From a phage: a stretch of 64,000 nt of DNA. Both the position numbers and the translations under genes were made by a program. Shown piece by piece: positions 9,706 through 60,367 of this stretch. The number at the start of each line of letters is the position of its first letter. Position 1 is the first letter of the stretch. The stretch is taken from assembly GCA_019326865.1 (NCBI GenBank), contig GCA_019326865.1_4101.1; one strand, given 5' to 3'. The notes beneath the pieces are model-generated. The model saw nothing but the letters and a program-made list of their open reading frames with translations, ran no database searches and was not told the origin of the DNA.

Positions 9706-9713
9706 AAAGTACT

Positions 9714-10009: not shown

Positions 10010-10012
10010 GTA

Positions 10013-10040: not shown

Positions 10041-10124
10041 AGTTTACATCAAGGGCAACGGGAAGTTTTAAAAACTTCCCTATAGGGAGAACAGTTCTCC
10101 CCGATACTAAAAGGAAACAAAAAT

Positions 10125-10585: not shown

Positions 10586-10593
10586 AAAGTACT

Positions 10594-10620
10594 TGCATTG
10601 TAGTTAGATTAACGTATAAT
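10594..10620 (+). promoter_or_regulatory. sigma70-like promoter with 5' leader hairpin
   Basis: TTGCAT-15nt-TATAAT; GAGGGGAAATGGTTTCCCCTC hairpin. Confidence 0.55.
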
Positions 10621-10671
10621 GTTTTATATCGAGAGGGGAAATGGTTTCCCCTCAAGTCCAGGAGATACACA

Positions 10672-10935
10672 ATGAACACTATCGAAATCACTATCAATGC
10701 TCACGTATACGACAACGTAGTACTGCAAACTACTATGACCGCTAATGATACCAGTACTTTGCGGAATACTGTTATTAGTGCTGTATGTGCCGCTATCGGT
10801 GATGTCGCCCTGGAAAATGCAAAACACGTAAACGATGGTTTCACTATGTGCAAGCGTGATAACGCAAAACATATCATCGTAGAAGGTTACGGCGGTGTAG
10901 AATATAATGTTTATATGAAAAAAGTACTTGCATAA
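10672..10935 (+). CDS. hypothetical protein (87 aa)
   Basis: ORF track; SD CAGGAGA; 3' end overlaps next promoter. Confidence 0.6.
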   Translation: MNTIEITINAHVYDNVVLQTTMTANDTSTLRNTVISAVCAAIGDVALENAKHVNDGFTMCKRDNAKHIIVEGYGGVEYNVYMKKVLA

Positions 10936-10955
10936 TAACTAAAACAAAGTATAAT
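10928..10955 (+). promoter_or_regulatory. sigma70-like promoter with 5' leader hairpin
   Basis: TTGCAT-16nt-TATAAT; GGGGGAGATATCCTCCCCC hairpin. Confidence 0.55.
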
Positions 10956-11002
10956 GTTTTGCATAGGGGGAGATATCCTCCCCCACTAAAAGGAGTAATA
11001 AA

Positions 11003-11227
11003 ATGGCTAACTTTGATGAACTGATGCGGGAAGTAGCTAACCTGGCAGAAGAGAAGAAATCATTCGATTCTATCTATAACACCTCTTACCGTGATTCAGT
11101 ACTGGCATGTAACCAGGATCAAAAAGATGAACTAATCGCCACCTATTATGAAGCATGGAAGTACTACCGACAATGGGAGAAAGAAGAAAGTGAGTCTACC
11201 ATTGACGGCCTCAATAATCTAATCTAA
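11003..11227 (+). CDS. hypothetical protein (74 aa)
   Basis: ORF track; SD AAAGGAG. Confidence 0.6.
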   Translation: MANFDELMREVANLAEEKKSFDSIYNTSYRDSVLACNQDQKDELIATYYEAWKYYRQWEKEESESTIDGLNNLI

Positions 11228-11245
11228 AGTTTTATTTCAGTACTA

Positions 11246-11274
11246 TTGACATAGATTGATAGTACTGATATGAT
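11246..11274 (+). promoter_or_regulatory. sigma70-like promoter
   Basis: TTGACA-17nt-TATGAT; partial copy of the 790 cassette. Confidence 0.45.
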
Positions 11275-11302
11275 AACTTTACTATCTACAAGGGGAAACA
11301 TC

Positions 11303-11560
11303 ATGGAACAATTCACACAATATCGGGTAAATCCTCAAGCTATGGCATACGTAGAAGACCATAAAACGTTACCAGTACAAACACCAATTAAAGGCCATAT
11401 CTATCGTGCAATGTCATGGAATCCGGCCCAGTATGGCTATAACACCGTAGCCGTGGGCATGTACTGCGGCAATGGTGAATGGTTTGATCCTAACAATCCG
11501 ATTGCACTTGATAGTACTGAAAAAATGAAATGGGCCGACTACATCGAAGATATTTCATAA
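11303..11560 (+). CDS. hypothetical protein (85 aa)
   Basis: start moved from track 11270 (ATG inside -10 region) to ATG after SD AAGGGGAAA. Confidence 0.55.
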   Translation: MEQFTQYRVNPQAMAYVEDHKTLPVQTPIKGHIYRAMSWNPAQYGYNTVAVGMYCGNGEWFDPNNPIALDSTEKMKWADYIEDIS

Positions 11561-11567
11561 AAATTAT

Positions 11568-11595
11568 TTGACAGTACTAACCAGTAATGTATAAT
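11568..11595 (+). promoter_or_regulatory. sigma70-like promoter with 5' leader hairpin
   Basis: TTGACA-16nt-TATAAT; GCGGGGGAATAGTTCTCCCGC hairpin. Confidence 0.55.
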
Positions 11596-11650
11596 GTTTT
11601 ACATAGAGCGGGGGAATAGTTCTCCCGCCAATAGTTTGGAGTAAAACATT

Positions 11651-11851
11651 ATGTCTATCGCTATCGCCCTGGTCGAAGTACTGAAAGAAGCTAAAGCCAA
11701 CCTTATCGATGTACAGATTAAGGAATTGCAAAATGGCTTAATCGGCTGTACTTGTACCGCTGGTGGCCCGTCAGACTATCGGGAATTCGAATCACTTGAA
11801 TCGATGGTCCGTTATCTTACAATCATCGTAGAAGATTGGAGAATCATCTAA
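11651..11851 (+). CDS. hypothetical protein (66 aa)
   Basis: ORF track; SD TTTGGAG. Confidence 0.55.
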   Translation: MSIAIALVEVLKEAKANLIDVQIKELQNGLIGCTCTAGGPSDYREFESLESMVRYLTIIVEDWRII

Positions 11852-11865
11852 CAAAAAAAAAGAAT

Positions 11866-12005
11866 AAAAAGGGATTGACTCCGGTCAGTCCCTTTGCTAT
11901 TATATACGCATAGACAAAAACTAGCCCACAGGGTGCATAGGTGTATCTTAAATATATAGTTAATAACGGTGAGTAACTATCTGCTGGTGGGGTGAAAACT
12001 ATTAA
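11866..12005. repeat. intergenic element R copy 4 (diverged)
   Basis: same hairpin and TTGACT(11875)-17-TATTAT; central part diverged, keeps CTAGCCCACAGGGTGC. Confidence 0.7.
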
Positions 12006-12014
12006 TAAAAAGTA

Positions 12015-12043
12015 TTGACAAAGTATATCAGTACTGCAATAAT
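12015..12043 (+). promoter_or_regulatory. sigma70-like promoter
   Basis: TTGACA-17nt-AATAAT. Confidence 0.45.
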
Positions 12044-12097
12044 GTATCTCGTAGGGCGGCAATGGTGCGACGGTCCACAAAGTTAGGAGATTCACAA

Positions 12098-12430
12098 ATG
12101 AGTACTTCAATCGCTATCGTTAAAGCTTTCATCCGTACCAACGTTTCATCTGTATTCATTGACGGACTGGATCGGGAAGTAGAATACTCAATCATTATCG
12201 CACAAACTGCAAACGGTGCTCGGTACATCCTTAATAATAGTGAAGCAAATCACTACTACTTCACTAAAGCCACTGGCTTTAAACGCATCGATGCTGATGT
12301 AGTATACGCTAAGATGAATAAGCTGGTAGACAAGATTAACGCGAAAGGTACTATCGATTTACAGTACTGGACCGAAACCGATCCAGAATATGGATCTCAC
12401 CGCTACCTGAATCCAGGTATTAAAATGTAA
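12098..12430 (+). CDS. hypothetical protein (110 aa)
   Basis: start moved from track 12062 to ATG after SD AGGAGA. Confidence 0.6.
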   Translation: MSTSIAIVKAFIRTNVSSVFIDGLDREVEYSIIIAQTANGARYILNNSEANHYYFTKATGFKRIDADVVYAKMNKLVDKINAKGTIDLQYWTETDPEYGSHRYLNPGIKM

Positions 12431-12437
12431 AAAGTAC

Positions 12438-12465
12438 TTGCATAGTACTTAGATTTAAGTATAAT
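12438..12465 (+). promoter_or_regulatory. sigma70-like promoter with 5' leader hairpin
   Basis: TTGCAT-16nt-TATAAT; GAGGGGGAAATGGTTCTCCCTCC hairpin. Confidence 0.55.
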
Positions 12466-12519
12466 GTTTTTCATAGAGAGGGGGAAATGGTTCTCCCTCC
12501 TAAATTAAGGAGTTTTATC

Positions 12520-12921
12520 ATGACCTTCTCAATCACTTCCTTCGCTGACGTTTTAGTACTGGCTCGGACTTTCGGCAAAGCTGGCCTTGAGCACGCTGTA
12601 AGTAATGGTTATATGCACCCGGAATATTGCCGCATTATCGGTAGCTGTAAACGTTGGGCCGTGTCCCGTAATATTGAGATTGAAAACTTCAATGATGGTA
12701 ACAACGAATATACAGTTGATGCAGTATTCGAATCCGTTGATCTCGGCGGTATCTATAACACTAACCTGAATGATGTGCGTATTGTTCGCACGGGGTTCGG
12801 TGCTTATGATGTATCTATCCGTGAAGCGATGGACAAGGGATACATTAGCAAGGATCAGTTAGCTTACATTATGCAGCAGACTAAAGAGCGTAATGAAGCA
12901 CGCACTATCTTAGGTCTGTAA
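12520..12921 (+). CDS. hypothetical protein (133 aa)
   Basis: start moved from track 12487 (ATG in hairpin loop) to ATG after SD AAGGAG. Confidence 0.6.
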   Translation: MTFSITSFADVLVLARTFGKAGLEHAVSNGYMHPEYCRIIGSCKRWAVSRNIEIENFNDGNNEYTVDAVFESVDLGGIYNTNLNDVRIVRTGFGAYDVSIREAMDKGYISKDQLAYIMQQTKERNEARTILGL

Positions 12922-29349: not shown

Positions 29350-29789
29350 GTTTAGCAAGTGCACTTAAACTGGCACACAAAATACATCACTTCCACGATA
29401 ACATAAAAAGTGGGTTCAATGGTGATAAAGTAAGTGCATTGGGTAATGAGTATTATCTATCAGGTATAAAGACATACTCTGATGATATTTTACTTATGGG
29501 ACATGATAAAGACAATACTATACAGTACTCTTCATGTAGTCAATATACTAGTTTTATGGTATATATTCCAGGTACTAAGATTACGTTTGACACATCAAAT
29601 TCACCTGTTGACTTCGGGGTACTTGATGGCCCGTGGGGTACTGAAGAGTATTACTTCCAACAGAGTCTTATTTTCAACCAAGAAATTCTTGATTCCTTGG
29701 TTGTTTTGTGGTACTTTAAGGAATTGAATTTTGAACCATTCTTTCTTGACTGGGGAGCATGTGAGTATTTAAGTACAGGGGATTTGTAA
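29346..29789 (+). CDS. family B paralog (WYFK subgroup)
   Basis: famB GTEEYYFQQSLIFNQE...WYFKE; ATGA-coupled. Confidence 0.65.
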   Translation: MSLASALKLAHKIHHFHDNIKSGFNGDKVSALGNEYYLSGIKTYSDDILLMGHDKDNTIQYSSCSQYTSFMVYIPGTKITFDTSNSPVDFGVLDGPWGTEEYYFQQSLIFNQEILDSLVVLWYFKELNFEPFFLDWGACEYLSTGDL

Positions 29790-30277
29790 TGTCGTTACAA
29801 AGTGCATTAAAAGAAGCAAAGAAAATCCATGAGTACATGATTATGGTACAAGAAGGTTCAGTCCCAGGTGTGTATAAAACATCTGATACTGAATTTTTTG
29901 TAAAAGACCGTGACGATTATGATGAGTCAGAGATATGTGCAGAAACGTTAGTACTGCACACTGATACTGGTGATAGTGATAACTGTGAATATCATATGTA
30001 CAATCAATACATTAGTTATTGCCGTAATGAAGATATTACCATCTACAACACAGATATTGATGCTGATGACACTATCATTCCGTATTCAGTACTGGAAGGT
30101 CCGTGGGATAGTGAAGAGTATTACTTTCAGAATAGTACTATCTACAATGAAGAAGAACTGGATGTTATTGTGATTATGTGGTACTTTAAAAGTATTGACT
30201 CCAGTAGTTTCTATTTTGATTATGAATATGTAGAGAATACAGTAGGAGAAGGTAATGTCATTACAAAGTGCTCTTGA
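29789..30277 (+). CDS. family B paralog (WYFK subgroup)
   Basis: famB DSEEYYFQNSTIYNEE...WYFKS. Confidence 0.65.
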   Translation: MSLQSALKEAKKIHEYMIMVQEGSVPGVYKTSDTEFFVKDRDDYDESEICAETLVLHTDTGDSDNCEYHMYNQYISYCRNEDITIYNTDIDADDTIIPYSVLEGPWDSEEYYFQNSTIYNEEELDVIVIMWYFKSIDSSSFYFDYEYVENTVGEGNVITKCS

Positions 30278-43754: not shown

Positions 43755-44337
43755 AGAAATTGAAAGTAAATTAAAGTACTTCAAAGATATCAAACTTCTT
43801 TGGGAAAAGTATAAAATTGATTACAAATTCAGTGATGATGAGACAATAAAATCCATTGATATTAATATCAAAATCAAGTTCAAGAATAATAATTATGGTG
43901 AAGTAAGCTTAAATCATACTGGTGTATCACTCAGGGACTATGATGGTTCAACACTCGCATATTTCGACTTCATTCCAGAACCAGGTGAAACACTACTTAG
44001 TGAGATAAATTCCTATGATATGGAAATATTCGGCGGGAATCCGTTACTGTTCCGACTGTCCGAAGAGTGGAGTGAAGAATACTACACTTACAAAGATGGT
44101 GTAGTACTTGACATTCATGGAGAAGTTGTGAATGACTTGGAAGAACGTTTGTTCCAAGAATTGTGTGTTTCAAATACTTCATATGCATACAATCATATCC
44201 TTGACATGTTTGATTTATATAGTAAAATAGATGCTGAAATGAATGCACATGGTATTCATTACCTTACAATTAACGACTATGCACAACTCGAAACCGCTGT
44301 GACAGCATTGTCTAAAGTACTGAAAATAGGAACGTAA
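43744..44337 (+). CDS. family B paralog, hypothetical
   Basis: famB LEERLFQELCVSN. Confidence 0.55.
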   Translation: MDFKEIESKLKYFKDIKLLWEKYKIDYKFSDDETIKSIDINIKIKFKNNNYGEVSLNHTGVSLRDYDGSTLAYFDFIPEPGETLLSEINSYDMEIFGGNPLLFRLSEEWSEEYYTYKDGVVLDIHGEVVNDLEERLFQELCVSNTSYAYNHILDMFDLYSKIDAEMNAHGIHYLTINDYAQLETAVTALSKVLKIGT

Positions 44338-44338
44338 T

Positions 44339-44752
44339 ATGAAACTGTACCATGCGAGTACTGTAAAAATTGATAACTTTTATATCCCGTATGGTGGTCT
44401 ACATATGGGAGGCAAACACAGTGCTTTGGAAGCTGCATTACGCAAGCTGAGAAGCCCACTGAACGTCGTAGACGCATGTACAGTATACTTGCATACCTTA
44501 GAAGTTGATGTTGATAACGTGCTTCTGTGTGAAGATTTAGGCAGTGATGATGAGTGGCGTTCACTTATTGAGAATTGCACTGTTCAAGGATATGATGCTG
44601 TTCAGTACAAAAATGATTACGAGCCAGACAATGTTCCTAGTTATATGATTTGGGATGCATCTAAAGTTCGTATAGTTGAAGTTGATGCTATGCATATGGA
44701 TGATGCTGAAATGATTATCGAAGATTTTCTTGATGAATATGAAGGTGTATAA
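44339..44752 (+). CDS. hypothetical protein (137 aa), unrelated to families A/B
   Basis: ORF track; no family motif; looks slightly GC-richer than neighbours by eye. Confidence 0.55.
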   Translation: MKLYHASTVKIDNFYIPYGGLHMGGKHSALEAALRKLRSPLNVVDACTVYLHTLEVDVDNVLLCEDLGSDDEWRSLIENCTVQGYDAVQYKNDYEPDNVPSYMIWDASKVRIVEVDAMHMDDAEMIIEDFLDEYEGV

Positions 44753-45288
44753 TGTCTGACCCGATGGTAGCACTGGCACGTACTAAATTACTATTAAAGA
44801 TTGGTGAGATATTCACAGATCTTCTGTGCAATAAAATTGATATTACCGATCTAGATATTAAGCAACCGTGGGAAGTGACTATGTTCTCGGCGTTCCACCG
44901 ATTGTCATATAAAGGTGAAAGTGTTCTTGATTTTAACCCCAAAGCAAAATTCATAGATTATGCCGCGTTGTACCGAGCGTTGCACAAAAATAGTTATTCA
45001 GGTTGTATAACCAATAACTTTGAACGAATTCAAGTTCAAACAGCATCACATGAGTTCAATGATTTACTCTATCCAGAATTTAATCTAACTGAAGAATTAC
45101 TATTTCAGTACTCGTTAATTCTTACAAATCTCGAAACGCTAGAGTACTACAAAGAGTTAGTAGATATTTTTATGAATACACGACTTTCAAAAGATATTGT
45201 GATATTCTGGTATACAGAGCATATTACAGAGGAATTGCTTAATGAATTTCTTCTAAATATGACAGCTATAAAGGAGAAGTTATGTTAG
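44752..45288 (+). CDS. family B paralog, hypothetical
   Basis: famB TEELLFQYSLILTN. Confidence 0.6.
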   Translation: MSDPMVALARTKLLLKIGEIFTDLLCNKIDITDLDIKQPWEVTMFSAFHRLSYKGESVLDFNPKAKFIDYAALYRALHKNSYSGCITNNFERIQVQTASHEFNDLLYPEFNLTEELLFQYSLILTNLETLEYYKELVDIFMNTRLSKDIVIFWYTEHITEELLNEFLLNMTAIKEKLC

Positions 45289-45755
45289 ATATTTTAGGAA
45301 ACATCGATACTGCAAATTATTTTATCCAAGACGCACTATTTAATACACTACAAAAAGGTTTAGAAGTTCGTTACAACGTATATCAAGGTGATGGATATTT
45401 TGTTGATATTCTAGAAACACGTAAAAATACATTTAATGTTAACATTACGACGTTTGGAAGACAGAACATTGCACGAATTTTAGTAAGTAAAGATGAAATA
45501 GTACTGAGATACAGTGCTAAGTTTATGTTGACGTACAAGAAAAAAACAGACATGTTCAGTACTAATTTATTTGATGAACCATTTGACCTTGTAGATATTG
45601 AAGCTACTTTCTTTACTCAAAGTACTATGGTAAAATACACTGATGTTCAATTTTCATCAGACGTTATGTCTGAAACATTACAAATGATCAAGGTATTATT
45701 TTATGCATTTGAGCAATTCAGAGAAGAAAGAAACAAGGTTAACAACCACAGATGA
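45282..45755 (+). CDS. hypothetical protein (157 aa), possible degenerate family B
   Basis: ORF track; degenerate IEATFFTQSTMVKY. Confidence 0.5.
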   Translation: MLDILGNIDTANYFIQDALFNTLQKGLEVRYNVYQGDGYFVDILETRKNTFNVNITTFGRQNIARILVSKDEIVLRYSAKFMLTYKKKTDMFSTNLFDEPFDLVDIEATFFTQSTMVKYTDVQFSSDVMSETLQMIKVLFYAFEQFREERNKVNNHR

Positions 45756-46116
45756 ACTAATAGAGGCGATCACTAAGGAGTCAAAATACCACAAAGGGAT
45801 TCGTCTATATTTTATAGATCTTGGTTCAATGGACGGCATATACATTTATGGTTCACAATCTTTATCTTATGATGTAATGCCAAAAAAATATGTAAAAATC
45901 TTTTTAGGGTCAAATAAGAAAACTTTCTTGACAATTAATGATAAAAACGTTATTATGAATTCTTTGGGTCATGATAAAGTGAAAATTGATCTAAACACGC
46001 TGGATGATATTGATTTTTTTCAATACGAATGTTTAGGTGTTGACTTACATGGAATCAGTAGTGATATGATAAAATCATTAATCAAATATTTCGAAGGCGT
46101 TCATAAATGTATCTAA
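45703..46116 (+). CDS. family B paralog, hypothetical
   Basis: famB DDIDFFQYECLGVD; 53-nt overlap with upstream ORF, start uncertain. Confidence 0.45.
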   Translation: MHLSNSEKKETRLTTTDELIEAITKESKYHKGIRLYFIDLGSMDGIYIYGSQSLSYDVMPKKYVKIFLGSNKKTFLTINDKNVIMNSLGHDKVKIDLNTLDDIDFFQYECLGVDLHGISSDMIKSLIKYFEGVHKCI

Positions 46117-46613
46117 CTAAATCGATGAAAAATTCATTTGATAAAATCAAGAGTTGTCTTGATGGAGAGAATATTACAAGTGTTACACAATCTGCTGACC
46201 AAATTCAATGCAGTTCAAGTGATTGTACTGTTATTTTGGGTTTACATAGTCTGCGTTTGTCAATAGTAAATAATATTGACAACACTGCTATTGTAATCAC
46301 ACCGTGCAATATTCAAAATGAGAATGGTGTATATCTTCATCACATGGGAACCGCATTTTATATTTTCAATACAAACAATACACTCGAAACAATCGTTAAG
46401 GAATATAATACACTTAACATTGATCCTGGTGAGTTATTTCAGATGAGTACGTTGTATTCATGTGATTTTACTGATACCTCACGTATTTTACCATTTTTCT
46501 TGGAAATTTTAAAGAAAATGGATAATTTAAATCGTCAATACAATAAAAAAATGGTTCCAGAAGCTATATTAAATATTACTGATGCTATGGAAAAATATAA
46601 AGCAGTGCCTTAA
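46107..46613 (+). CDS. family B paralog, hypothetical
   Basis: famB PGELFQMSTLYSCD. Confidence 0.55.
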   Translation: MYLTKSMKNSFDKIKSCLDGENITSVTQSADQIQCSSSDCTVILGLHSLRLSIVNNIDNTAIVITPCNIQNENGVYLHHMGTAFYIFNTNNTLETIVKEYNTLNIDPGELFQMSTLYSCDFTDTSRILPFFLEILKKMDNLNRQYNKKMVPEAILNITDAMEKYKAVP

Positions 46614-46656
46614 TAAAAAACGCACATGGAGTGCATATGAAGATCAAGGATAGATC

Positions 46657-47130
46657 ATGGAGATTAAAACTGTTGAAAATGGGAAAATTGATGACATTTT
46701 AGACTTGGACGCATTCAAAGTTCATGATATAATGTTTAATGTGAAGGACATTATTCAATGTCTGTTTTTATGCAGCAAGACTATGCATGATTTTTTTCAC
46801 AACCCGAATACTAATGTTTTTATACTTACAATCAGTACTGAAAACTCGTTTATCATGGGTATGCCCATGAGTACAAATGAACAGTATATTGATTGTGTTA
46901 TTCGCAATAATGATTGTATTACCCCACAATCTGAAGTTCGCAAAAAGAAAAACACTTACACAATCAAAGATGATAAAATCATGATGTGTTGCAGTAAAGG
47001 ATTTATATTGGACAATTTCATCGTCAAAGATAGTTATCATGACTTTAAAATTTCCGAAAATCAATCCAATGTAGTTCTTTATGCTAGTGATATCGAAAGT
47101 TTAACAGTCAAAGATCCTAGTTTGGAGTAA
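46657..47130 (+). CDS. hypothetical protein (157 aa)
   Basis: ORF track; no family motif. Confidence 0.5.
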   Translation: MEIKTVENGKIDDILDLDAFKVHDIMFNVKDIIQCLFLCSKTMHDFFHNPNTNVFILTISTENSFIMGMPMSTNEQYIDCVIRNNDCITPQSEVRKKKNTYTIKDDKIMMCCSKGFILDNFIVKDSYHDFKISENQSNVVLYASDIESLTVKDPSLE

Positions 47131-47132
47131 GT

Positions 47133-47264
47133 ATGGCTAAGAAAGTAAACAATTTCGTACAGAAACACATGAATGAGTTTAACAAGCCTCAGACACATGT
47201 GGATCGTAAAAAAGAAATGAAAAATGGTAAAGTAAAACACAAGTCGAGATTTATTCTCGACTAA
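47133..47264 (+). CDS. hypothetical basic small protein (43 aa)
   Basis: hand-translated MAKKVNNFVQKHMNEF...KHKSRFILD; 3' end lies in terminator stem. Confidence 0.35.
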   Translation: MAKKVNNFVQKHMNEFNKPQTHVDRKKEMKNGKVKHKSRFILD

Positions 47265-47270
47265 TTTTTT
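47243..47270 (+). terminator. rho-independent terminator
   Basis: GTCGAGA-TTTAT-TCTCGAC followed by TAATTTTTT. Confidence 0.6.
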
Positions 47271-47287
47271 GTCTAAATTTTTGAGGA

Positions 47288-48142
47288 TTGTATATGTTGG
47301 ACATTTCAGATTTTCTTAATTTTAAAAAGTATTCAGTACTTGAACATATCAACGAATTTCTGAATTCCCCAACACCATTTGGTATCAGTACATCAGATTC
47401 ATACGATGGATATAGAATCTTCCCATGCAATGACTTTCAAATTTCTGTCAAAAAAGGTTTTACAAAAGAAGTTGCAATTCGTGATGTAGTAATGTATAGC
47501 GATTCTTCTATTTCTTACTGTCATGATGTGAACAATTTTGAATCTCTTTCAACACCTAATTGTTCATACTACAAATCCCATGACACGATGATGTATAAAG
47601 AACAACATATCAATGGTGTTTCGTTCTACAAAACTAGCAGTGATAAATCATATACATCTAGAGATGATTTTGGAAAATACACATGTACTATGCACACGGA
47701 TAATGAAAAAACAAATTACACTCATTCATTCGAGTCCAAATTCCAAGAGAGTGAAGTTTCAAATATCACTATACAAGAACAGGTTTCAGAAGGCATTGTA
47801 TATCGTAGTACTGCATTCTTTCGCATGAAAGATGTTGCCACAGGCAGACCAATGATGTACAATATTGACATATACATGAAAGGTGATATATCAGAAGTAG
47901 TGATTAGTACTGGTTATCGTGAAAAATATACAGTTACAATGGAATCACCAGATGCATCGTTAGTTCACCTCTTTAACAATTTATATACATTCCAATTCGA
48001 ACTTAGTTTAGACTACAATGAATATCAAATATTCGATATATTAAAAAGTAATATTATTAATAAGTTAGAATATTACTACAAGTTAGGTGGTAAGATGTGC
48101 ATAGTTAATACTATGTTACATAACATAAAAGAAACATTATAA
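47288..48142 (+). CDS. hypothetical protein (284 aa), possible family B relative
   Basis: ORF track; C-terminal LYTFQFELSLDYNE. Confidence 0.55.
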   Translation: MYMLDISDFLNFKKYSVLEHINEFLNSPTPFGISTSDSYDGYRIFPCNDFQISVKKGFTKEVAIRDVVMYSDSSISYCHDVNNFESLSTPNCSYYKSHDTMMYKEQHINGVSFYKTSSDKSYTSRDDFGKYTCTMHTDNEKTNYTHSFESKFQESEVSNITIQEQVSEGIVYRSTAFFRMKDVATGRPMMYNIDIYMKGDISEVVISTGYREKYTVTMESPDASLVHLFNNLYTFQFELSLDYNEYQIFDILKSNIINKLEYYYKLGGKMCIVNTMLHNIKETL

Positions 48143-48158
48143 ATCTGGAGGATTTGGT

Positions 48159-48452
48159 ATGGATACTAAATTCAAAATTATTTTTAAAACTAAGCCGTAT
48201 ATTCCACATACAGCAGAACGTTTTATACCACATGATGCAGAGGAAATTATTCATCAAGATGGTACAAAGTTATATCTAGTGCCATGTTCATATGAACGTG
48301 CAGTAGAAATGTTACTCATGAATTCTAAATTATGTACAAACAAGTACATTAGTTACTTATATAATGAACATATTTTAGATTTTAATGATGAAAATATGTT
48401 TATTCTGGCAATTGAAGATTTTAATAATTGGTACAACATTATTAAAATCTGA
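48159..48452 (+). CDS. hypothetical protein (97 aa)
   Basis: ORF track; SD GGAGGA. Confidence 0.55.
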   Translation: MDTKFKIIFKTKPYIPHTAERFIPHDAEEIIHQDGTKLYLVPCSYERAVEMLLMNSKLCTNKYISYLYNEHILDFNDENMFILAIEDFNNWYNIIKI

Positions 48453-48522
48453 TAAAATATTGTGAACATATTAAATCTTTATGATATAATGTTCACATAT
48501 TTTTTTGATAATGGAGATATAG

Positions 48523-48909
48523 ATGAATACAAGTTCAATCCTAAAAGCAATTGGTGGTGTTTTACTTATTGAAGTGAAAGGTGAACCAAAACTGTGCTGT
48601 TTGGAAGATATGAAGAATACAAAACACTTCAGTACTGGTCAGATTTTTAATGCCATTCGTGTTCTAAATGATAAATCAATCGCTGATTATGGTAAAGTTT
48701 GGCCTGTATATCAAAACGCAGATGGTGATATCAGTTCTGACTGGAAAACCATTGAAGCAGTCCGACAAAGTTGTGATAGCGACTGGGACTTCATTGTAGA
48801 AGTATGTGACCAACTTCAAGAAGATGTACCAGAAATTGTGGAACGAAAGGAAGTTCTGGCAAATCTAGAAAAGTTCCGTCATGGAACACTACCATATGAT
48901 ACAATCTAA
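48523..48909 (+). CDS. hypothetical protein (128 aa)
   Basis: ORF track; SD TGGAGA; palindrome TGTGAACAT..ATGTTCACA upstream. Confidence 0.55.
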   Translation: MNTSSILKAIGGVLLIEVKGEPKLCCLEDMKNTKHFSTGQIFNAIRVLNDKSIADYGKVWPVYQNADGDISSDWKTIEAVRQSCDSDWDFIVEVCDQLQEDVPEIVERKEVLANLEKFRHGTLPYDTI

Positions 48910-48959
48910 TCTACTTATTAAAAAATAGCTAGTTAACATTATATAAAAAGGAATTTAAA

Positions 48960-49265
48960 ATGGAAGATAATGGAATGAAATTTGATATGTTTGAGGGTGT
49001 ACCTGAGTTTGATTTTAACAAACTAGAAAATGGTGAAGAGTCAGAACTCGTTAGTGTTACACTTAAAGCAGATTCTAAGAAGAAATATTCATCAGCAGTA
49101 CGTTCACGTTCACAAGAAGAATACGAAACATTTATTGAAAGTATTCATTATGAAACATTCCATCATGCAGATGGAACTCCATATGAAGTACGTGTAACAG
49201 TACTGAAGCCTGAAGTAAATCCAATGGAAAATCTACGTCCTGTTTACTGCTGGGCAAGTCACTAA
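48960..49265 (+). CDS. hypothetical protein (101 aa)
   Basis: ORF track; SD AAAGGAAT; followed by terminator. Confidence 0.55.
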   Translation: MEDNGMKFDMFEGVPEFDFNKLENGEESELVSVTLKADSKKKYSSAVRSRSQEEYETFIESIHYETFHHADGTPYEVRVTVLKPEVNPMENLRPVYCWASH

Positions 49266-49273
49266 TAAACCAA

Positions 49274-49306
49274 AGGACGGGATTTGTTATTTCGTCCTTT
49301 TTTTTG
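49274..49306 (+). terminator. rho-independent terminator
   Basis: AGGACG-14nt loop-CGTCCT followed by TTTTTTTT. Confidence 0.6.
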
Positions 49307-49317
49307 TCTGGAGATGT

Positions 49318-50172
49318 ATGAAACTTTATCTAATCGTTGACTACAATAAGGATTATGCTGGTAACTTCACCGAAGATTCGGATGGATATTGCACATCGAC
49401 TAATGTCAATGTACGTAGCAGTAGTGCTCATGAACATGAATCTTGTAAAAATCTAAAAGATTTTATCACATACCGAGCATTTGAAAAGAACTTCTGCCGC
49501 AGTAGATATTCTAAGTTTGAGTACCCATTAATTGATGTTCCTGATGAATTGATGTTCCAGCTAATGTTAACTGGAGTTCAAGATTATGATTATATTGCTT
49601 ATAATCACATAACAAAGAAGATTTACATTGGAACATCAGTACACGATACTTCCATGTATGCATCATGCCCAGATGATCGAATGAAGCATAGAAATTCATA
49701 CTATAGTGGATCAGTTGGTTCAAATAATTCATCAAATAAAAATTCATTCTTTGAGTACGTGTATGATTACCATCACGAGAAAAAAGAACGTGAAGATTAC
49801 TGTATAGAGATTGATAGTACTAATGGATATGAAGACGTAAAAGAAGCTCTTATGCCATACATTATAGAAAAATACTACAAAGATTTTCAGTACTGTAGTA
49901 ATTTTCTAATCAGAAATTCTATTCAAATCGGTCGTCAATCCACTGCATACGCTATGTACTACAGTGATTCTCCAGTTGTAGCAGGAAATGAAAGGGGTGA
50001 TATCCTACCAATTCCACGTGAAGATATGACATTCATTTTTACATCTTTTATTGAGGATGATGAATTGTACGTTAAAAATAAGCATCGTTTCATGCCAAGT
50101 AAAATTGAGATTATTAGAAGCATCAGTGTTGATATATTAACCAATTTTACTGAAAAAACTGAATATAACTGA
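49318..50172 (+). CDS. hypothetical protein (284 aa), possible family B relative
   Basis: ORF track; N-proximal VPDELMFQLMLTGVQD. Confidence 0.55.
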   Translation: MKLYLIVDYNKDYAGNFTEDSDGYCTSTNVNVRSSSAHEHESCKNLKDFITYRAFEKNFCRSRYSKFEYPLIDVPDELMFQLMLTGVQDYDYIAYNHITKKIYIGTSVHDTSMYASCPDDRMKHRNSYYSGSVGSNNSSNKNSFFEYVYDYHHEKKEREDYCIEIDSTNGYEDVKEALMPYIIEKYYKDFQYCSNFLIRNSIQIGRQSTAYAMYYSDSPVVAGNERGDILPIPREDMTFIFTSFIEDDELYVKNKHRFMPSKIEIIRSISVDILTNFTEKTEYN

Positions 50173-50202
50173 GACAAAATAGAAGTTAATGATATAATGT
50201 GA

Positions 50203-50231
50203 GGTGACAGTATATACTGTCACCTTTTTTT
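50203..50231 (+). terminator. rho-independent terminator
   Basis: GGTGACAGTATATACTGTCACC palindrome followed by TTTTTTT. Confidence 0.75.
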
Positions 50232-50849
50232 AATCCTGAAAGGTTCCTATAAGGAAATGATTAAAAGCCTAATCCACTCGAAAATGTAGAGGGTAGATGA
50301 GTAGTCCTTTCAGTACGAACAGCAGATGAAACCCGTTAGATGATGGCATAGTTTGAACCACTCACGGCAATGCGGCTGTATAAAGAACTCCAATAGGATA
50401 AAGAGAGTTCCTAGATAGACATATAAGGATCGCACCTTACCAATTATCTAAGGGAGATTTCATAAGAAATATGCGGTCGGAATTATACAATATAGTTGCG
50501 TCCAAATTTTGTGAAATCAAATACAAGTACTGGTCATATGGTATTTGTATTATGTGTCGGGATGTTTAAGACCGACGACCGTTGCTACAAGAACCGCGAT
50601 AGAGAGAAACAGAGCAACCCGCTTTCGTCTCGTAAGAGAATTCGTGATATGAACTATGTGAAGGCCACCAGCGTCAAACTTTTTTGTTCTTTCCCCTGCG
50701 GGGGGATGAAATATGCTCAAGCAAACCTCGTCAATATTAATTAAAAGACTTTATAATACTTGTAGAATTGTACATGCACCGCATGGAGAATTCTACTGAT
50801 GTTGATGTAATCAACATCACGTATATTCATTGATGTTTCCATAGGAATA

Positions 50850-51395
50850 ATGATGGCATTTATTAAAAAAGAAAAAACTATTACTTATAAAACTTTGAAT
50901 TTTGATGATTGTATTAATCAATCACAGGACGAAAATATTTTTACTGGATATGTGGTTATTAAAGAAAAAGGATGCATTTCTTATATAAAGGAATTGCAAA
51001 ATGGCATTGAAGTCACTTCAGTTAAATTACTTCCTACACAAAAACCAACAATATCAAAAGCCCAGTACGGTAATTATTTCGAGGAAAGATACAGTAATAA
51101 TTTAATAAGTGTTAAAGCTCATATTGTAAAAGGAGAACTAGAAGGAGAATATAGAAAATTCAACCCACAAGGAAAATGTGTTTGGGTTAAATACTACAAT
51201 TCAGGTGTTGATATAACATCTGAAATTATAGAGTTCTTAGGGTTGTCATGTACACCTGAAACTCTTCATGACTACAAATTTAATACTGAAGAAGAGTTTA
51301 ATCTGATGATGCGTTATGGATCACATTTTAAATTTTTATATGAATATAACGTTGACAGTAGTATTTTTGATAAAATAGTACATAACTGTCTATAA
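50850..51395 (+). CDS. hypothetical protein (181 aa), possible MORN/YwqK-like repeats
   Basis: ORF track; repeat-like GEYRKFNPQGKCVWVKYYNSG (weak). Confidence 0.5.
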   Translation: MMAFIKKEKTITYKTLNFDDCINQSQDENIFTGYVVIKEKGCISYIKELQNGIEVTSVKLLPTQKPTISKAQYGNYFEERYSNNLISVKAHIVKGELEGEYRKFNPQGKCVWVKYYNSGVDITSEIIEFLGLSCTPETLHDYKFNTEEEFNLMMRYGSHFKFLYEYNVDSSIFDKIVHNCL

Positions 51396-51411
51396 CAAAA
51401 GGATTTATATA

Positions 51412-51933
51412 ATGTCGAAGAAGGATACTTCGAATAAGCACTCAGTTCATTTCAGTACTGGAAAAGATAACTGGACAACCCCAAAAGATTTTTTTGAAGA
51501 TTTAGATGAGTTATGGGGATTTACACTTGATGCTGCTTGTGTAGATGAGACTGCATTGTGTGATAATTTTTTCACTCCAGAAGATGATTCACTGTCACAG
51601 GATTGGGGAAATAATATAGTTTGGTTGAATCCACCATATAGTGACTTAAAAACATGGTTATCTAAAGCTGTAGATGCATATAATAACGGAGCAACTGTAG
51701 TTATTCTTGTACCCTCAAGAACCGATACAATTGCTTTTCAGGATTATGCTGCTAAAATATGTGATTGTATTTGTTTTATTAAGGGAAGATTGCGATTTGG
51801 TATACCAGAAGAACCCGATAAGAAAACTGATTCAGCACCATTTCCTTCGTGTCTGATAGTTCTGGATAAGTACTTAACCACTGCTAAAATCAATTGTCTT
51901 AAATCTCTCGGATTGGTGATGAAGAATTTATGA
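51412..51933 (+). CDS. phage Dam-type DNA N6-adenine methyltransferase
   Basis: catalytic NPPY in WLNPPYSD; size and N-terminal DNWTTPKDFFEDL layout as in small phage Dam MTases (recalled, not searched). Confidence 0.65.
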   Translation: MSKKDTSNKHSVHFSTGKDNWTTPKDFFEDLDELWGFTLDAACVDETALCDNFFTPEDDSLSQDWGNNIVWLNPPYSDLKTWLSKAVDAYNNGATVVILVPSRTDTIAFQDYAAKICDCICFIKGRLRFGIPEEPDKKTDSAPFPSCLIVLDKYLTTAKINCLKSLGLVMKNL

Positions 51934-52463
51934 AAGAAACATGTATATTATCATTTATGAGATGTAACCCAGTCCACAATGGACATGGTTTAGTTTTTGA
52001 AAAGGCCAAAACATTACAAGAACAGTACAATGCTGATTTAAAAATTTATCTAAGCACTAGTACTGACAATATAAAAAACCCACTACCACCTGAACTAAAA
52101 ATGTATTATACAGAGGGATTCTATCCTTCAGTGCAAGAGAACATCTACACAGAGGACAATCTATTTGATATAATGAGAGAACTGGATGGAAAGTACTTAG
52201 ATGTTCTCTTCATATGTGGTTCTGACCGTATTGATTCTTTTCAGAAAACCCTTGACACTTACAATGGGAAGTTGTATAATTTTTGTAATATAAAAGTAAT
52301 TCAAGCAGGTATTGACCGCCAATCAAGTCGATATAGCTCAACACAAATGCGTAAGTTTGCCAAAAATGAAGATTTTGATAGTTTTCGTGAGTTTTTGCCT
52401 GGAAATGACGAGAACTTAAAAATTCAATTATTTGAAGATGTTATAAAATACATGAGGAAATAA
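51930..52463 (+). CDS. HxGH nucleotidyltransferase, NMN adenylyltransferase-like
   Basis: N-terminal RCNPVHNGH (H-x-G-H) and SSTQMRKF (S-x-T-x-x-R) as in short NMNAT/cytidylyltransferases; ATGA-coupled to methyltransferase. Confidence 0.55.
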   Translation: MKETCILSFMRCNPVHNGHGLVFEKAKTLQEQYNADLKIYLSTSTDNIKNPLPPELKMYYTEGFYPSVQENIYTEDNLFDIMRELDGKYLDVLFICGSDRIDSFQKTLDTYNGKLYNFCNIKVIQAGIDRQSSRYSSTQMRKFAKNEDFDSFREFLPGNDENLKIQLFEDVIKYMRK

Positions 52464-52465
52464 TT

Positions 52466-52759
52466 ATGTCAGTACTGTTCAAAACTAATCCAGTACTTTG
52501 GGAACAAAATGAACAATCAGGATTTCGTTCCATCCATGTTGAATACAAAGGTAATACAGTAGTTGCAATTATTGCTAACAAAACTCTAGGAAAATGGACC
52601 GCACAGGTTGTTCCTATGGGCTATTCTTATACATCTGATGAGGTTCAATTTTTAGCTGAACTTTATCGTCAAGTTCCTTTTATTATTAATGTGTTAGAAG
52701 GCAATGATACATTATCACATGAAGATGTGATTGATTTTCTTGGAAACTTACATGTGTGA
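52466..52759 (+). CDS. hypothetical protein (97 aa)
   Basis: ORF track. Confidence 0.5.
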   Translation: MSVLFKTNPVLWEQNEQSGFRSIHVEYKGNTVVAIIANKTLGKWTAQVVPMGYSYTSDEVQFLAELYRQVPFIINVLEGNDTLSHEDVIDFLGNLHV

Positions 52760-53039
52760 TGAAATAAATCTTACAGGATATTTTTTACAAGAATCTATGA
52801 TCAAATTTAGTGAACATTTCCCAGTACTGGATGGTATCGAAATGTGGCATGTCAAACCACTGTTTCACACTTTCAGTAAAGAGCACAAAATGTTATTGAC
52901 TGAAGCGAGTAAATCAAATAACATATGTGAAATCAAAATTGGTGTAAATGTCTATAAAGGGATGGTTATCTTTTTTGACAATAACAGCAACTACTTTTAT
53001 ATTGTTAAGGAGCAATACGTTGACAAATACAAATACTAA
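52752..53039 (+). CDS. hypothetical protein (95 aa)
   Basis: track ORF 52731..53039; start moved to ATG 52752 overlapping upstream stop. Confidence 0.45.
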   Translation: MCDEINLTGYFLQESMIKFSEHFPVLDGIEMWHVKPLFHTFSKEHKMLLTEASKSNNICEIKIGVNVYKGMVIFFDNNSNYFYIVKEQYVDKYKY

Positions 53040-53628
53040 TACATACTTCCGTTATCTTCGTTTAGGTCTTTCCCTTCGACCAATCCGTGGAAAGTGTGAT
53101 TCACTCGCAGACCTTGACTATGCATATGCATTACATCATGAGGGTGTACAGTATGTATTGGGTGATTATGGTGAATTTGAAGAAACAAATGACAGTACTG
53201 GAATTAATGCTGGTGTAGAAAATCTCAACAACATTGCAAACAGTTCGCGTCATGATATTGTGTTACAGATTCAAAACTTTATTGAGCAACACACTGGTAA
53301 ACGTGTTTGGTGTTATGTCGGAACTGATGCACAAATGTCTATTTCATTCGGTAATGATGACGGATATGTCGCACAGCTAATTATGGATTTTGAATCTGAA
53401 GAGAAGTTTTTAGAATTTAAAGATAAAATCATCAAATCACTCGTTGATATGGGTATCCCAGAAGATAAAATGCCAGAAGTTCAAAACATTGATGAATTTG
53501 TTTTGATTCCATCTGATGAGAAATACGATGCTATGTTTTCTGCTCTTAATATTCCAGGAGTCATTGTGGAGTACTTTGATGATGGTGATGATAGCATCTA
53601 TATCGATTTAGATGACGATGATGAATAA
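52948..53628 (+). CDS. hypothetical acidic protein, start unresolved
   Basis: track ORF with no in-frame ATG for about 130 codons; C-terminus DDGDDSIYIDLDDDDE; possible frameshift with 52752..53039. Confidence 0.4.
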   Translation: MSIKGWLSFLTITATTFILLRSNTLTNTNTNTYFRYLRLGLSLRPIRGKCDSLADLDYAYALHHEGVQYVLGDYGEFEETNDSTGINAGVENLNNIANSSRHDIVLQIQNFIEQHTGKRVWCYVGTDAQMSISFGNDDGYVAQLIMDFESEEKFLEFKDKIIKSLVDMGIPEDKMPEVQNIDEFVLIPSDEKYDAMFSALNIPGVIVEYFDDGDDSIYIDLDDDDE

Positions 53629-53633
53629 TATAT

Positions 53634-53661
53634 AGCCCGACATAAGTTCGGGCTATTTTTG
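53634..53661 (+). terminator. rho-independent terminator
   Basis: AGCCCGA-CATAAGT-TCGGGCT followed by ATTTTTG. Confidence 0.7.
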
Positions 53662-53672
53662 TAAGGGGAAAT

Positions 53673-53948
53673 ATGAATTATAAATTTCTACAATATACAT
53701 ACACAATATTATTTGATTTACATCACAATGGACGATATATCAACACAATACGAGAAAACACATTTACTCATATGTTATGGATTGATTACTTAGAAACGAT
53801 TCGTGCATATTTTGTTAATACTGAGATAATCATTCGTGGTAAAAAACAGAAGATTCAACATGTTAATAGTTATGGTGGTAAATTAACTCTAACATTTACC
53901 GATAATAATACTAATGAAATGTGTTGTATCGAGTTGGTGAACATATGA
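53673..53948 (+). CDS. family C paralog (about 90 aa), hypothetical
   Basis: N-terminus MNYKFLQYTYTILFDL; first of 5 tandem copies. Confidence 0.6.
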   Translation: MNYKFLQYTYTILFDLHHNGRYINTIRENTFTHMLWIDYLETIRAYFVNTEIIIRGKKQKIQHVNSYGGKLTLTFTDNNTNEMCCIELVNI

Positions 53949-54211
53949 ATTATAAAGATTTCCAATTAACATATAAGATTATTCGCAATCTAGCACACAG
54001 CAATAATAGCCCTAGTCTAGAAGACACATGCACAGAAATGATCCATACGATTCGTGCAAAGATTGAAGAAAATTTCAGTACTGTTATTATTAATGATGAC
54101 CATGCAGAATTTTCTGATATAATCATTAGACGTGATGGTAAAGTTGAGGTTCAGTACTACACTGATTTTGGATTTACAAGTGTACCGTTGGAGATATTCC
54201 CTTGGGATTAA
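53945..54211 (+). CDS. family C paralog, hypothetical
   Basis: MNYKDFQLTYKIIRNL; start moved from track 53921 to ATGA-coupled ATG. Confidence 0.55.
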   Translation: MNYKDFQLTYKIIRNLAHSNNSPSLEDTCTEMIHTIRAKIEENFSTVIINDDHAEFSDIIIRRDGKVEVQYYTDFGFTSVPLEIFPWD

Positions 54212-59228: not shown

Positions 59229-60367
59229 CCCTTTTGCAAATATATGAAGATTTAATGCACTTGTGCAATACAAACGATGCGTTCTTTTATGTGGATCATA
59301 AAAGTCCTGCTGGTGGAACGTATCGTGTATTCAGTTATCGTCTAGCATCATATACTGATTTCATGCAACCCAATGCATTAGAAACCCGTGGATCTATGTG
59401 GGAAATTGATGAAGAAGGTAATATGATTCGTTGTGCTGCTCGTACTATGAAAAAGTTCTTTAATGCTTACGAGAATCCTGCTACAATGTTCCCTGCTAAC
59501 ACCACATGCGATGACATTGCAGTAGTGATGCCTAAATTGGATGGTTCAGTGATCAGTACTTACCGTGACAATGATGGTGAGATTCGTTGTAAATCACATA
59601 CTGCATTGTATTCTGACCATGCGATTAACAGTACTCGACTTATTAACGAGAACCAGAATCTATATCAGTACATCGATGAAGCTGAACGTTTAGGTTACAC
59701 AGTTAATATGGAGTATACAAGCCCAGAGTACCGAATTGTATTACCGTATCAGGTAGAACAATTGTTTGTGCTGAACGTTCGTCATCGTGTAAGTGGTGAG
59801 TTGCTATGTGGTAAAGCATTACGTGATAAGTTTCCATGTCTTTCACAGTACAGCACTAATATGACAGGAAAAGATATTCATCACACTTTTCCTGTGCGAA
59901 ATTCATTCCGTGAAAGCGTTGATGAAGTTCATAAAATGCTTGACATTGAGGGTTTTGTTTGCATTTTAAAAGATGGGACAATGTGTAAAATAAAGACTGA
60001 CTGGTACAGTTCATTACATCTTACAAAAGATAGTATTATTATTGATTCTCATTTATATGAAGCTGTATTAAATGGTTCAAGTGATGATTTAAAACAATTG
60101 TTCAGTTCTGACGAATATGCTATGCAAAAGATATTAAGAATGGAACAGTTGGTTTTTTCGTGCTATAATGCATTACAAGATGAAGTAGAAAGCTTCGTCA
60201 ATGAACACAAGCACTTAGAGCGAAAGGAATTCGCATTGAAGGTTCAGACGTGCTTATCTAGTGAACTGAATCGTCAGGGCTTGGCATTTGCAATGTATAA
60301 TAATAAGAAAGTTGATTACAAAGATACACTTATCAAATACATGAAAATTATACTAAAAGATTTTTAG
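59225..60367 (+). CDS. rnlA: RNA ligase 1 (T4 RnlA-like)
   Basis: FFYVDHKSPAGGTYRVFSYRLASYTDFMQPNALETRGSMWEID aligns with the T4 Rnl1 N-terminus as recalled; nucleotidyl-lysine motif KLDGS; CILKDGTMCKIKTDWY as in T4. Confidence 0.85.
   Translation: MTLLQIYEDLMHLCNTNDAFFYVDHKSPAGGTYRVFSYRLASYTDFMQPNALETRGSMWEIDEEGNMIRCAARTMKKFFNAYENPATMFPANTTCDDIAVVMPKLDGSVISTYRDNDGEIRCKSHTALYSDHAINSTRLINENQNLYQYIDEAERLGYTVNMEYTSPEYRIVLPYQVEQLFVLNVRHRVSGELLCGKALRDKFPCLSQYSTNMTGKDIHHTFPVRNSFRESVDEVHKMLDIEGFVCILKDGTMCKIKTDWYSSLHLTKDSIIIDSHLYEAVLNGSSDDLKQLFSSDEYAMQKILRMEQLVFSCYNALQDEVESFVNEHKHLERKEFALKVQTCLSSELNRQGLAFAMYNNKKVDYKDTLIKYMKIILKDF

Follow-up and report, generated by a model that had tools for sequence, protein, structure and literature searches.

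A predicted extended -10 promoter and its lineage-specific palindrome upstream of a 128-aa gene in Asteriusvirus DNA

A short intergenic space in the DNA of a jumbo phage carries a perfect inverted repeat around a TATAAT hexamer, which raises the question of whether it is an operator overlapping a promoter or whether the symmetry has another origin. The whole stretch of DNA that was analysed, referred to here as the window, comprises 64,000 nucleotides and is Asteriusvirus DNA, from a 121Q/PBECO4-like, 'Rak2-like' jumbo coliphage. A megablast search with positions 47000-52000 matched 56 phage records, the best of which was UE-S1, an Escherichia phage matched over the full length at 99.1% identity; phAPEC6, G17, 121Q, PBECO4 and further Asteriusviruses came next, at 85-94%. 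All the credible genes of the window lie on the + strand. The locus itself, 48453-48522, is the entire intergenic space between the stop codon of a 97-aa gene (48450-52) and the ATG at 48523, with which a 128-aa gene begins (48523..48909, + strand, phrog_15570). The next gene encodes 101 aa (48960-49265, + strand) and has a canonical terminator on its 3' side (49272-49300). The 128-aa protein is without a Pfam domain and has orthologs in 72 phage records. The sole Pfam match among the neighbouring proteins is a Dam methylase, to which PHROGs adds a cytidyltransferase and otherwise families of unknown function, and neither known RNA families nor tRNAs were found in the window. As a side observation, the hexamer AGTACT is in 9.5-fold excess genome-wide, and a literature search on it returned nothing relevant.

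The perfect 9-bp inverted repeat that had been reported upstream of 48523 is borne out by direct reading and by a repeat search. Its arms, TGTGAACAT on the left (48461..48469, + strand) and ATGTTCACA on the right (48489..48497, + strand), are complementary at 9/9 positions and lie 19 nt apart, and they can be extended to 16 nt with 81% complementarity (48454-48469 / 48489-48504). The TATAAT hexamer that had been placed inside the loop is exact (48485-48490), but it lies there only in part, since the right arm begins with its final AT (48489-90). In the window, 34 inverted repeats with perfect arms of 9 bp or more and loops of 3-30 nt were counted, against 12.8 +/- 3.2 in dinucleotide-preserving shuffles; since about 13 are expected per window by chance, a single 9-bp inverted repeat is unremarkable by itself. 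The half-site 9-mer is not enriched in the window when up to one mismatch is allowed (27 found, 36 expected). When a 45-nt query was compared with 50,697 phage records, the palindrome was found at one site per Asteriusvirus genome, the '2 places' returned per record being the same palindromic site matched on both strands. The half-site centres, 48465 and 48493, are separated by 28 bp or about 2.7 helical turns, which is off a multiple of 10.5 bp. Between TGTGA (48461-65) and TCACA (48493-97) lie 27 nt, and this N27 spacing rules out a CRP site (TGTGA-N6-TCACA); a Cheo-box-like GAAC...GTTC is ruled out by its own spacing, N21.

The two arms coincide with the parts of a putative promoter. The left arm holds a -35-like hexamer, TGAACA (48463..48468, + strand), situated 16 bp upstream of the -10 and replaced in relatives by TGGACA; the former matches TTGACA at 4/6 positions and the latter, which is present in 6/10 of the relatives aligned, at 5/6. 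The extended -10, TGATATAAT (48482..48490, + strand; TG at 48482-83, TATAAT at 48485-90), is invariant in 11 Asteriusviruses, and every one of the 7 copies of this motif in the window is on the + strand. The right arm takes in the final 2 nt of the -10 and continues through the discriminator to the predicted start, which would be A48497, 7 nt past the -10. The 5' leader contains a run of 7 T (48500..48506, + strand) that begins 2 nt past the right arm; it measures 5-8 T in all Asteriusviruses and is absent from the orthologous sites in other genera. UTP-sensitive reiterative transcription at this run is unlikely, as it starts at about +4 from the predicted start and is preceded by A or C. A Shine-Dalgarno sequence, GGAGA (48513..48517, + strand), lies 5 nt before the ATG, is invariant and is annotated as the ribosome-binding site in UE-S1. 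The promoter thus described sits 32 nt upstream of the 128-aa gene. Generic matches to a sigma-70-like consensus are not enriched in the region 44000-54000 (62 found, 58 expected from shuffles). The first 12.5 kb of the window contain about 22 early promoters that are very strong and follow the pattern AAAAAGTA-CTTGCA/TTGACA-N17-TATAAT-GTTTTACAT; their downstream consensus, TATAAT-GTTTTACAT, is nearly repeated by the -10 together with the rest of the right arm, TATAAT-GTTCACAT.

Conservation within the genus was evaluated in an alignment of 11 Asteriusviruses including the window, with flanking genes 74-99.9% identical to those of the window. The left arm reads TGTG[A/G]ACAT in 10/11, the exception being A4 with TCTGGACAT. 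The 12 nt that follow it, which form the spacer part of the loop (48470..48481, + strand), are variable at most positions, TGATATAATGTTC is invariant in all 11, and the right arm reads GTTC[A/G]CAT, after which come the T-run, GATAA and GGAGATA. This succession of box, variable spacer and box is the pattern predicted by a promoter. The dyad is perfect in 5/11 (the window, UE-S1, ELP22, 121Q and PBECO4), and falls to 8/9 in slurp01, WPEC3 and CMSTMSU, to 7/9 in JNE01 and Turkey5 and to 6/9 in A4. The arms have undergone three substitutions, each of them one-sided and none mirrored in the opposite arm; two of the three are A-to-G changes that keep the pairing as G.U in + strand RNA. T48461 and G48462, which lie outside the -35 hexamer, are conserved in 10/11 without an obvious promoter role.

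The comparison was extended to other Rak2-like genera by aligning the upstream regions of the orthologs of the 128-aa protein on the -10. A promoter of the same build precedes the orthologous gene in Mimasvirus, Eneladusvirus, the 7t3-like phages and Hallingskeid. The region reads GTGAAACAGAATAA...TATGGTATAAT-GTACGCACC in GAP32 and CBB, GATGAAACGG...GTGGTATAAT-GTACACACC in XbC2, ATG[A/G]AACA...TGGTATAAT-ATACGCACC in Eneladusvirus (pEa19, Yen9-04), TTGGGACAG...TGATATAAT-AAATCATC in 7t3 and Kae01, and TTGGGATGA...TGCTATAAT in Hallingskeid; XaC1 has TGAAACG...TATACT without the TG, and Alcyoneusvirus (RaK2, KP13-7) has no promoter in a spacer of just 22-23 nt. TGnTATAAT is present at the orthologous site in all groups examined save these last two. 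It is accompanied by a TG[A/G]AAC box in GAP32, CBB, XbC2, pEa19 and Yen9-04, and by GGGAC/GGGAT at the position of the box in 7t3, Kae01 and Hallingskeid. The start-region counterparts of the right arm in other genera are GTACGCAC / ATACGCAC. The palindrome is absent from all the orthologous upstream regions outside Asteriusvirus.

One of these orthologous promoters had already been catalogued. The promoters of CBB have been divided into three classes (Buttimer et al. 2017, PMC5259590). The first consists of 18 RpoD-like promoters of the early region, the second, present in GAP32 too, pairs a classic -10 with TGAAACG as its -35, and the third has a T4-late-like ATAAATA motif. Table S6 of that study gives 18 members of the second class, all of the form TG[A/G]AA[C/T]N-N11-RTGNTATAAT, and the first of them is Porf_66, TGAAACAGAATAATTTTTTATGGTATAAT, at CBB 29,539-29,567 (PMC5259590). 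This promoter lies 28 nt upstream of CBB_66 (29,595-29,993), which tblastn identifies as the ortholog of the 128-aa protein. The orthology with catalogued promoters is an observation, as are the sequence features and the pattern of conservation. The likeness between the 48463 site and the 'Promoter 1' or divergent RpoD-like class of Rak2-like phages (PMC5259590) consists in the orthologous position, the RTGNTATAAT part and a TG[A/G]A(A)C box about 17 bp upstream; both the members of the class and the 48463 site lie outside the early-gene cluster. The window's motif, ATGATATAAT, fits the class in its RTGN-TATAAT part and departs from it in the box, TGAACA being one base shorter, so that the motif measures 28 rather than 29 nt. 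The regular expression of the class finds 4 sites in the window, at 46706, 48463, 50170 and 60141, all on the + strand and with about 1 expected, and the dyad is absent from the other three. The class is itself a MEME prediction (PMC5259590), of which the palindrome forms no part. The 48463 site can be classed as an ordinary Asteriusvirus member of this catalogued class of predicted promoters.

We propose that 48453-48522 very probably holds a sigma-70-family extended -10 promoter. It would be composed of an A/T-rich upstream tract, TGAACA, a 16-bp spacer, TGATATAAT, a start near A48497, a U-rich leader and GGAGA, and would be the Asteriusvirus ortholog of the 'Promoter 1' class with its TG[A/G]AAC box and RTGNTATAAT. 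It would drive transcription of the 128-aa gene (48523) and probably also of the one after it, up to the terminator at 49272. A literature search on Asteriusvirus promoters and transcriptomes found nothing relevant beyond the CBB paper and no transcript mapping, so that we infer the promoter activity at 48463-48490; we likewise infer where transcription starts, to which timing class the promoter belongs and that no protein binds the dyad. The enzyme that reads it would be host RNA polymerase with either host sigma-70 or a phage sigma, given that Asteriusviruses, according to the literature, encode their own sigma-70-family factor.

The fuller statement, according to which the dyad of this promoter is a lineage-specific by-product, we consider probable, with moderate confidence. 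The left arm would then amount to the -35 box plus two bases, and the right arm would run from the last bases of the -10 through the discriminator to the presumed start, their complementarity having arisen within the Asteriusvirus lineage. This complementarity would not itself be the conserved feature, and a repressor would be unnecessary. The A/G polymorphisms of the arms would fall at positions that are variable in the class, as TGAAAC and TGGAAC alternate in CBB and the purine of the start region alternates across genera. Some points run contrary to this statement. In Asteriusvirus the hairpin formed by the arms is accompanied by the T-run, and other genera lack both, a co-occurrence that a pure by-product would not predict. 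Two A-to-G changes in the arms keep the pairing as G.U, and T48461 and G48462 are conserved without an evident promoter role. The -35 matches its consensus at only four of six positions, in a box one base shorter than that of the CBB class.

It can be hypothesised instead that the arms act in RNA. On transcripts reading through from 47288-48452, they would form a hairpin followed by a U-run. This would be a weak intrinsic terminator, an insulator, or an element for RNA processing or stability, after which the nested promoter would restart transcription; transcripts started at the promoter would include no more of the right arm than its last base and would be unaffected. We regard this, the main rival reading, as a possibility worth keeping in mind, albeit an unlikely one. 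The hairpin is computed at -10.1 kcal/mol, or -12.6 kcal/mol when extended by the A-tract and U-tract, close to the weakest of the canonical terminators of the window (-11.0 to -16.2 kcal/mol), and a 78-nt region around it folds at -14.8 kcal/mol (z = -2.25). Its shape differs from that of the phage's canonical terminators, which have loops of 4-7 nt: here the loop has 19 nt and the stem is A/U-rich with 3 G-C among 9 pairs. The U7 begins 2 nt past the stem. A terminator scan that reports 49272, 50201 and 53632 misses it. A stem of -9 to -11 kcal/mol is present in 10/11 Asteriusviruses and is followed by 5-8 U in 11/11, while other genera have neither the T-run nor the hairpin (-0.4 to -4.3 kcal/mol); A4 is the exception, with a C-C mismatch and a fold of just -4.5 kcal/mol. 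The compatibility of two of the three arm substitutions with G.U pairing, on the + strand alone, is consistent with an RNA role, but double compensatory changes are found at 0/9 pairs of the main hairpin, and the two A/G sites also tolerate purine exchange as promoter positions, both in the CBB class and in the cross-genus start region. The phage clade does use intergenic RNA hairpins, and a promoter adjoins a terminator at 50170-50233. The hairpin is moreover compatible with the promoter, which could possibly be nested in the loop of a weak terminator.

A stronger form of this idea would make the dyad a selected, Asteriusvirus-specific bifunctional junction. Here the hairpin of about -10 kcal/mol with its U5-8 would attenuate or insulate upstream RNA, and the TGAAAC-class promoter in the loop, possibly read by the phage's own sigma, would restart transcription with a different timing. 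We consider this version doubtful.

The operator, in which the original prediction had seen the meaning of the locus, fares worse. In that reading, a dimeric protein of the phage or the host would bind the 9-bp half-sites, occlude the -35 and the start and thereby repress the 128-aa gene. A perfect dyad does overlap the promoter, both arms are conserved within the genus, and dyads associated with promoters exist in this phage, as six of the window's early promoters have a -35 framed by the arms of another palindrome family, CAGTACTAT...ATAGTACTG. The symmetry as such, on the other hand, is not maintained, since changes in one arm go unmirrored, relatives retain only 8/9, 7/9 or 6/9 complementary positions and other genera lack the dyad. 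There is a single site per genome, with a half-site that is unenriched in the window, and the separation of the half-site centres by about 2.7 turns places them on different faces of the helix. No Pfam DNA-binding domain was found in any of the 10 neighbouring proteins (0/10), the other three promoters of the class are without the dyad, and both arms are already explained by promoter parts. We therefore consider an operator improbable. The promoter half of the original proposal is upheld by conservation within the genus and across genera and by the orthology with Porf_66, whereas the operator half finds no support: the symmetry is unconserved, the site does not recur and the half-site centres are 28 bp apart.

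That the palindrome is a chance product of an A/T-rich spacer without promoter function, the downstream gene being expressed by read-through only, is very improbable: although some 13 such repeats per window arise by chance and sigma-70 matches are as frequent as in shuffles, this reading leaves aside the conservation of box, spacer and box, the promoter of the same build in most of the other Rak2-like groups examined and the confinement of all copies of TGATATAAT to the coding strand. A promoter on the minus strand, with its -35 supplied by the right arm, was also considered; the match is weak (TTCACA-17-AATAAT) and there are no minus-strand genes.

A second palindrome with 10-bp arms had been described as similar to the first and placed upstream of 50850. 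It is exact, with the perfect arms TGATGTTGAT (50797-50806) and ATCAACATCA (50810-50819) around the loop gta, but it resembles the first in neither sequence nor geometry, its 3-nt loop holding no -10. A comparison of relatives shows it to be an RNA stem-loop unrelated to the first palindrome, because compensatory changes occur in its arms and hairpins of different sequence stand at the same place in other genera. This stem-loop, H2 (50797..50819, + strand), belongs to the leader of gene 50850 and shows both compensatory and wobble changes in relatives; H1 (50762..50796, + strand) lies directly 5' of it, and H3 (about 50837-50847, + strand) pairs the ribosome-binding site. Compared with the window, 121Q, PBECO4, slurp01 and ELP22 have one U.G pair (TGATGTTGAT / ATCAACGTCA), and WPEC3 has an A-T pair replaced by G-C, plus wobbles (TGGTGTTGAT / GTCAACGCCA). 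The loop is of 12 nt in A4 (GATGTTGATT-12 nt-AATCAATATC) and in JNE01 and Turkey5 (GATTTTTATT-12 nt-AATAAAAGTC), the latter two having two G-C pairs of the window changed to U-A. The counterparts of H2 in other genera are GGAACATC-gtag-GATGTTCC in Yen9-04, the same arms with the loop gtga in CBB, GGAGCTACC-gaa-GGTAGTTCC in Kaldavass and GAATCATT-12 nt-AATGATTC in 7t3. An FNR site (TTGAT-N4-ATCAA) at the second palindrome is ruled out by its spacing, N3.

Adjoining the second palindrome, and forming no part of the 48463 promoter, is an unannotated structured RNA of about 510 nt (50235..50745, + strand, boundaries approximate), which sits in a 677-nt 'intergenic' stretch (50173-50849). Directly upstream of it is one of the class promoters, TGAGAC-N17-TATAAT with a TG (50170..50198, + strand), whose extended -10 is conserved across genera. 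Between this promoter and the RNA lies a G+C-rich hairpin with a T-run, of canonical terminator shape (50201..50233, + strand, -16.2 kcal/mol). The element has a G+C content of about 40% against 30% in its flanks. It is 89-98% identical among Asteriusviruses, compared with 74-95% for genes of the same phages, and 66-76% identical in the 7t3-like phages, Eneladusvirus, Mimasvirus, Kaldavass and XaC1; RaK2 carries a divergent copy at the syntenic site. The window contains one copy, and a scan of IMG/VR with an invariant 15-mer, followed by nhmmer, found at least 2-3 full-length paralogs per genome, for example in 121Q (L121, L066, L048), CBB (L073, L038), GAP32 (L041, L072) and Yen9-04 (L037, L068). 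The two 121Q paralogs examined lie among unrelated genes, one of them between minus-strand genes.

The secondary structure of this RNA is corroborated by covariation. In an alignment of 23 orthologs and paralogs, the consensus has 65 pairs in 15 helices, with compensatory changes at 35 pairs. Paired cells amount to 96.9%, against 34-44% in controls with the partners displaced by 1-3 columns, and the covariation score is 0.457 against 0.07-0.12 in these controls; 0/500 shuffles reach the observed values. The G.U pairs point to the + strand. Rfam 15, searched at gathering and permissive thresholds, gave no match, either with the window copy as query or with five copies, paralogous or diverged, taken from other phages, and no tRNA was found in the element. 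The ncRNAs detected by RNA-seq in PA5oct were considered as possible homologs and show no similarity. The first 120 matches to the invariant 15-mer in bacterial genomes are chance hits, 0/120 carrying the element, and a literature search on structured RNAs of jumbo phages found no description of it. We propose that it represents a candidate new family of large structured phage RNAs, and it is a more interesting object than the 48461 palindrome. In its size, its multiple copies and its origin in phages, it is reminiscent of ROOL/GOLLD-type RNAs.

The stakes of the promoter itself are modest: one predicted promoter is added to a nearly unannotated jumbo-phage genome, and an operator is removed as a false lead. 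The recurrence of the TGAAAC-box and extended -10 class at orthologous positions in at least five Rak2-like groups speaks for the reality of the class, which is thereby well suited to the question of whether it is read by the phage-encoded sigma. Interest thus moves from the promoter to a structured RNA of about 510 nt located 1.7 kb downstream, which exists in multiple copies, covaries strongly and has no Rfam family; this RNA and the AGTACT excess are both directly testable.

The predicted promoter can finally be set beside several known systems. Extended -10 sigma-70 promoters of E. coli have a TG one base upstream of TATAAT and a weak -35. The 48463 site shares TGnTATAAT and the weak -35 with them, and differs in being a promoter of a phage that encodes its own sigma-70-family protein. 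Operators overlapping promoters are exemplified by lac O1, lambda OR and the LexA boxes, with which the locus has in common a dyad over the core promoter; unlike them, it has half-sites 19 bp apart (28 bp from centre to centre), a symmetry that is not conserved and a single site. With Rho-independent terminators and T4-like junctions of terminator and promoter it shares a stem followed by a U-run and, as at 50170-50233 of the window, a promoter adjoining a signal for transcript end, but unlike Rho-independent terminators, it has a 19-nt loop that holds the -10, an A/U-rich stem and a negative result in the terminator scan. T4 middle promoters combine a MotA box at -30 with a sigma-70 -10. The parallel with these lies in a host-type -10 joined to a phage-specific box in place of the -35, the sequence and the position of that box being different in the two cases.

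An unannotated structured RNA of ~510 nt lies at 50235-50745, with approximate boundaries, and is built of covarying helices. Its sequence is near-invariant across Asteriusviruses and it is kept in all Rak2-like groups examined, with at least two to three paralogous copies per genome. The proposed fold is supported by compensatory changes in 35 of the 65 consensus pairs, and by the proportion of alignment cells able to pair, which reaches 96.9% vs ~40% in slid controls. No match was obtained in Rfam 15, the RNA was absent from all 120 loci sampled in bacterial genomes, and no description of it was found in the literature searched. It is a candidate for a new large phage RNA family. The copy in UE-S1 contains a 55-nt tandem duplication (locus L001, 6227-6430), the counterpart of which is located at ~50322-50376 of the window and which spans the region of the helix at 50319-50379; the window lacks this duplication despite 99% identity elsewhere.

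At 50170-50233, a promoter of the TGAAAC-box/extended -10 class predicted in Rak2-like phages (here TGAGAC-N17-TATAAT with TG) is immediately followed by a G+C-rich hairpin (-16.2 kcal/mol) and a T7 run, a layout that is conserved across genera. Since the hairpin's left arm contains the inferred start of this promoter, transcripts arriving from upstream would be ended by the terminator, and those started locally would bear a truncated stem. Two further matches to the promoter class, at 60141-60169 (TGGAACAGTTGGTTTTTTCGTGCTATAAT) and 46706-46733 (TGGACGCATTCAAAGTTCATGATATAAT), are situated within open reading frames and may be internal promoters. At 50837-50852, a small hairpin conserved in Asteriusviruses, UUCC-aua-GGAA, pairs the Shine-Dalgarno sequence of the gene at 50850, which suggests that this gene is under translational control.

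At the scale of the whole window, the palindromic hexamer AGTACT occurs at 202 sites vs ~21 expected, a 9.5-fold excess, and CAGTACTG at 38 sites vs 0.7 expected. Within genes, the AGTACT sites occupy all three codon phases, and their density in non-coding DNA is 6.5 per kb. A 7-14-fold excess was also found in RaK2, 7t3, GAP32, CBB and IMG/VR jumbo-phage loci (loci counted: L011-L013, L033, L041, L065, L073, L080 and L094); PA5oct showed no such excess. The excess is a DNA-level signal, of which the literature searched gave no account.

At the extreme 3' end of the 97-aa gene, immediately 5' of the 9-bp dyad that embraces the extended -10 promoter (48461-48497), the 13-nt arms AGATTTTAATAAT and ATTATTAAAATCT form a perfect inverted repeat around a 9-nt loop (48416-48450); this repeat is retained in 121Q and PBECO4 with one G-C for A-T exchange and lost from the slurp01 and WPEC3 lineage. 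Window 1-12600 holds a dense array of ~22 near-consensus early promoters, AAAAAGTA-CTTGCA/TTGACA-N17-TATAAT-GTTTTACAT, one for each small gene. Downstream of most of these promoters, the 5'-UTR contains a conserved hairpin with the form GGGGAGAA-N5-TTCTCCCC; GGGAAGTTT-taa-AAACTTCCC is present at both 3469 and 10060. A recurring palindrome family, CAGTACTAT-TGACATAGATTG-ATAGTACTG, places a TTGACA -35 inside its loop, with the right arm abutting the -10. Whereas this promoter-embracing dyad is found in six copies in the window (802-831, 1094-1123, 3756-3785, 4014-4052, 7861-7896 and 11237-11268), the dyad at 48461-48497 does not recur.
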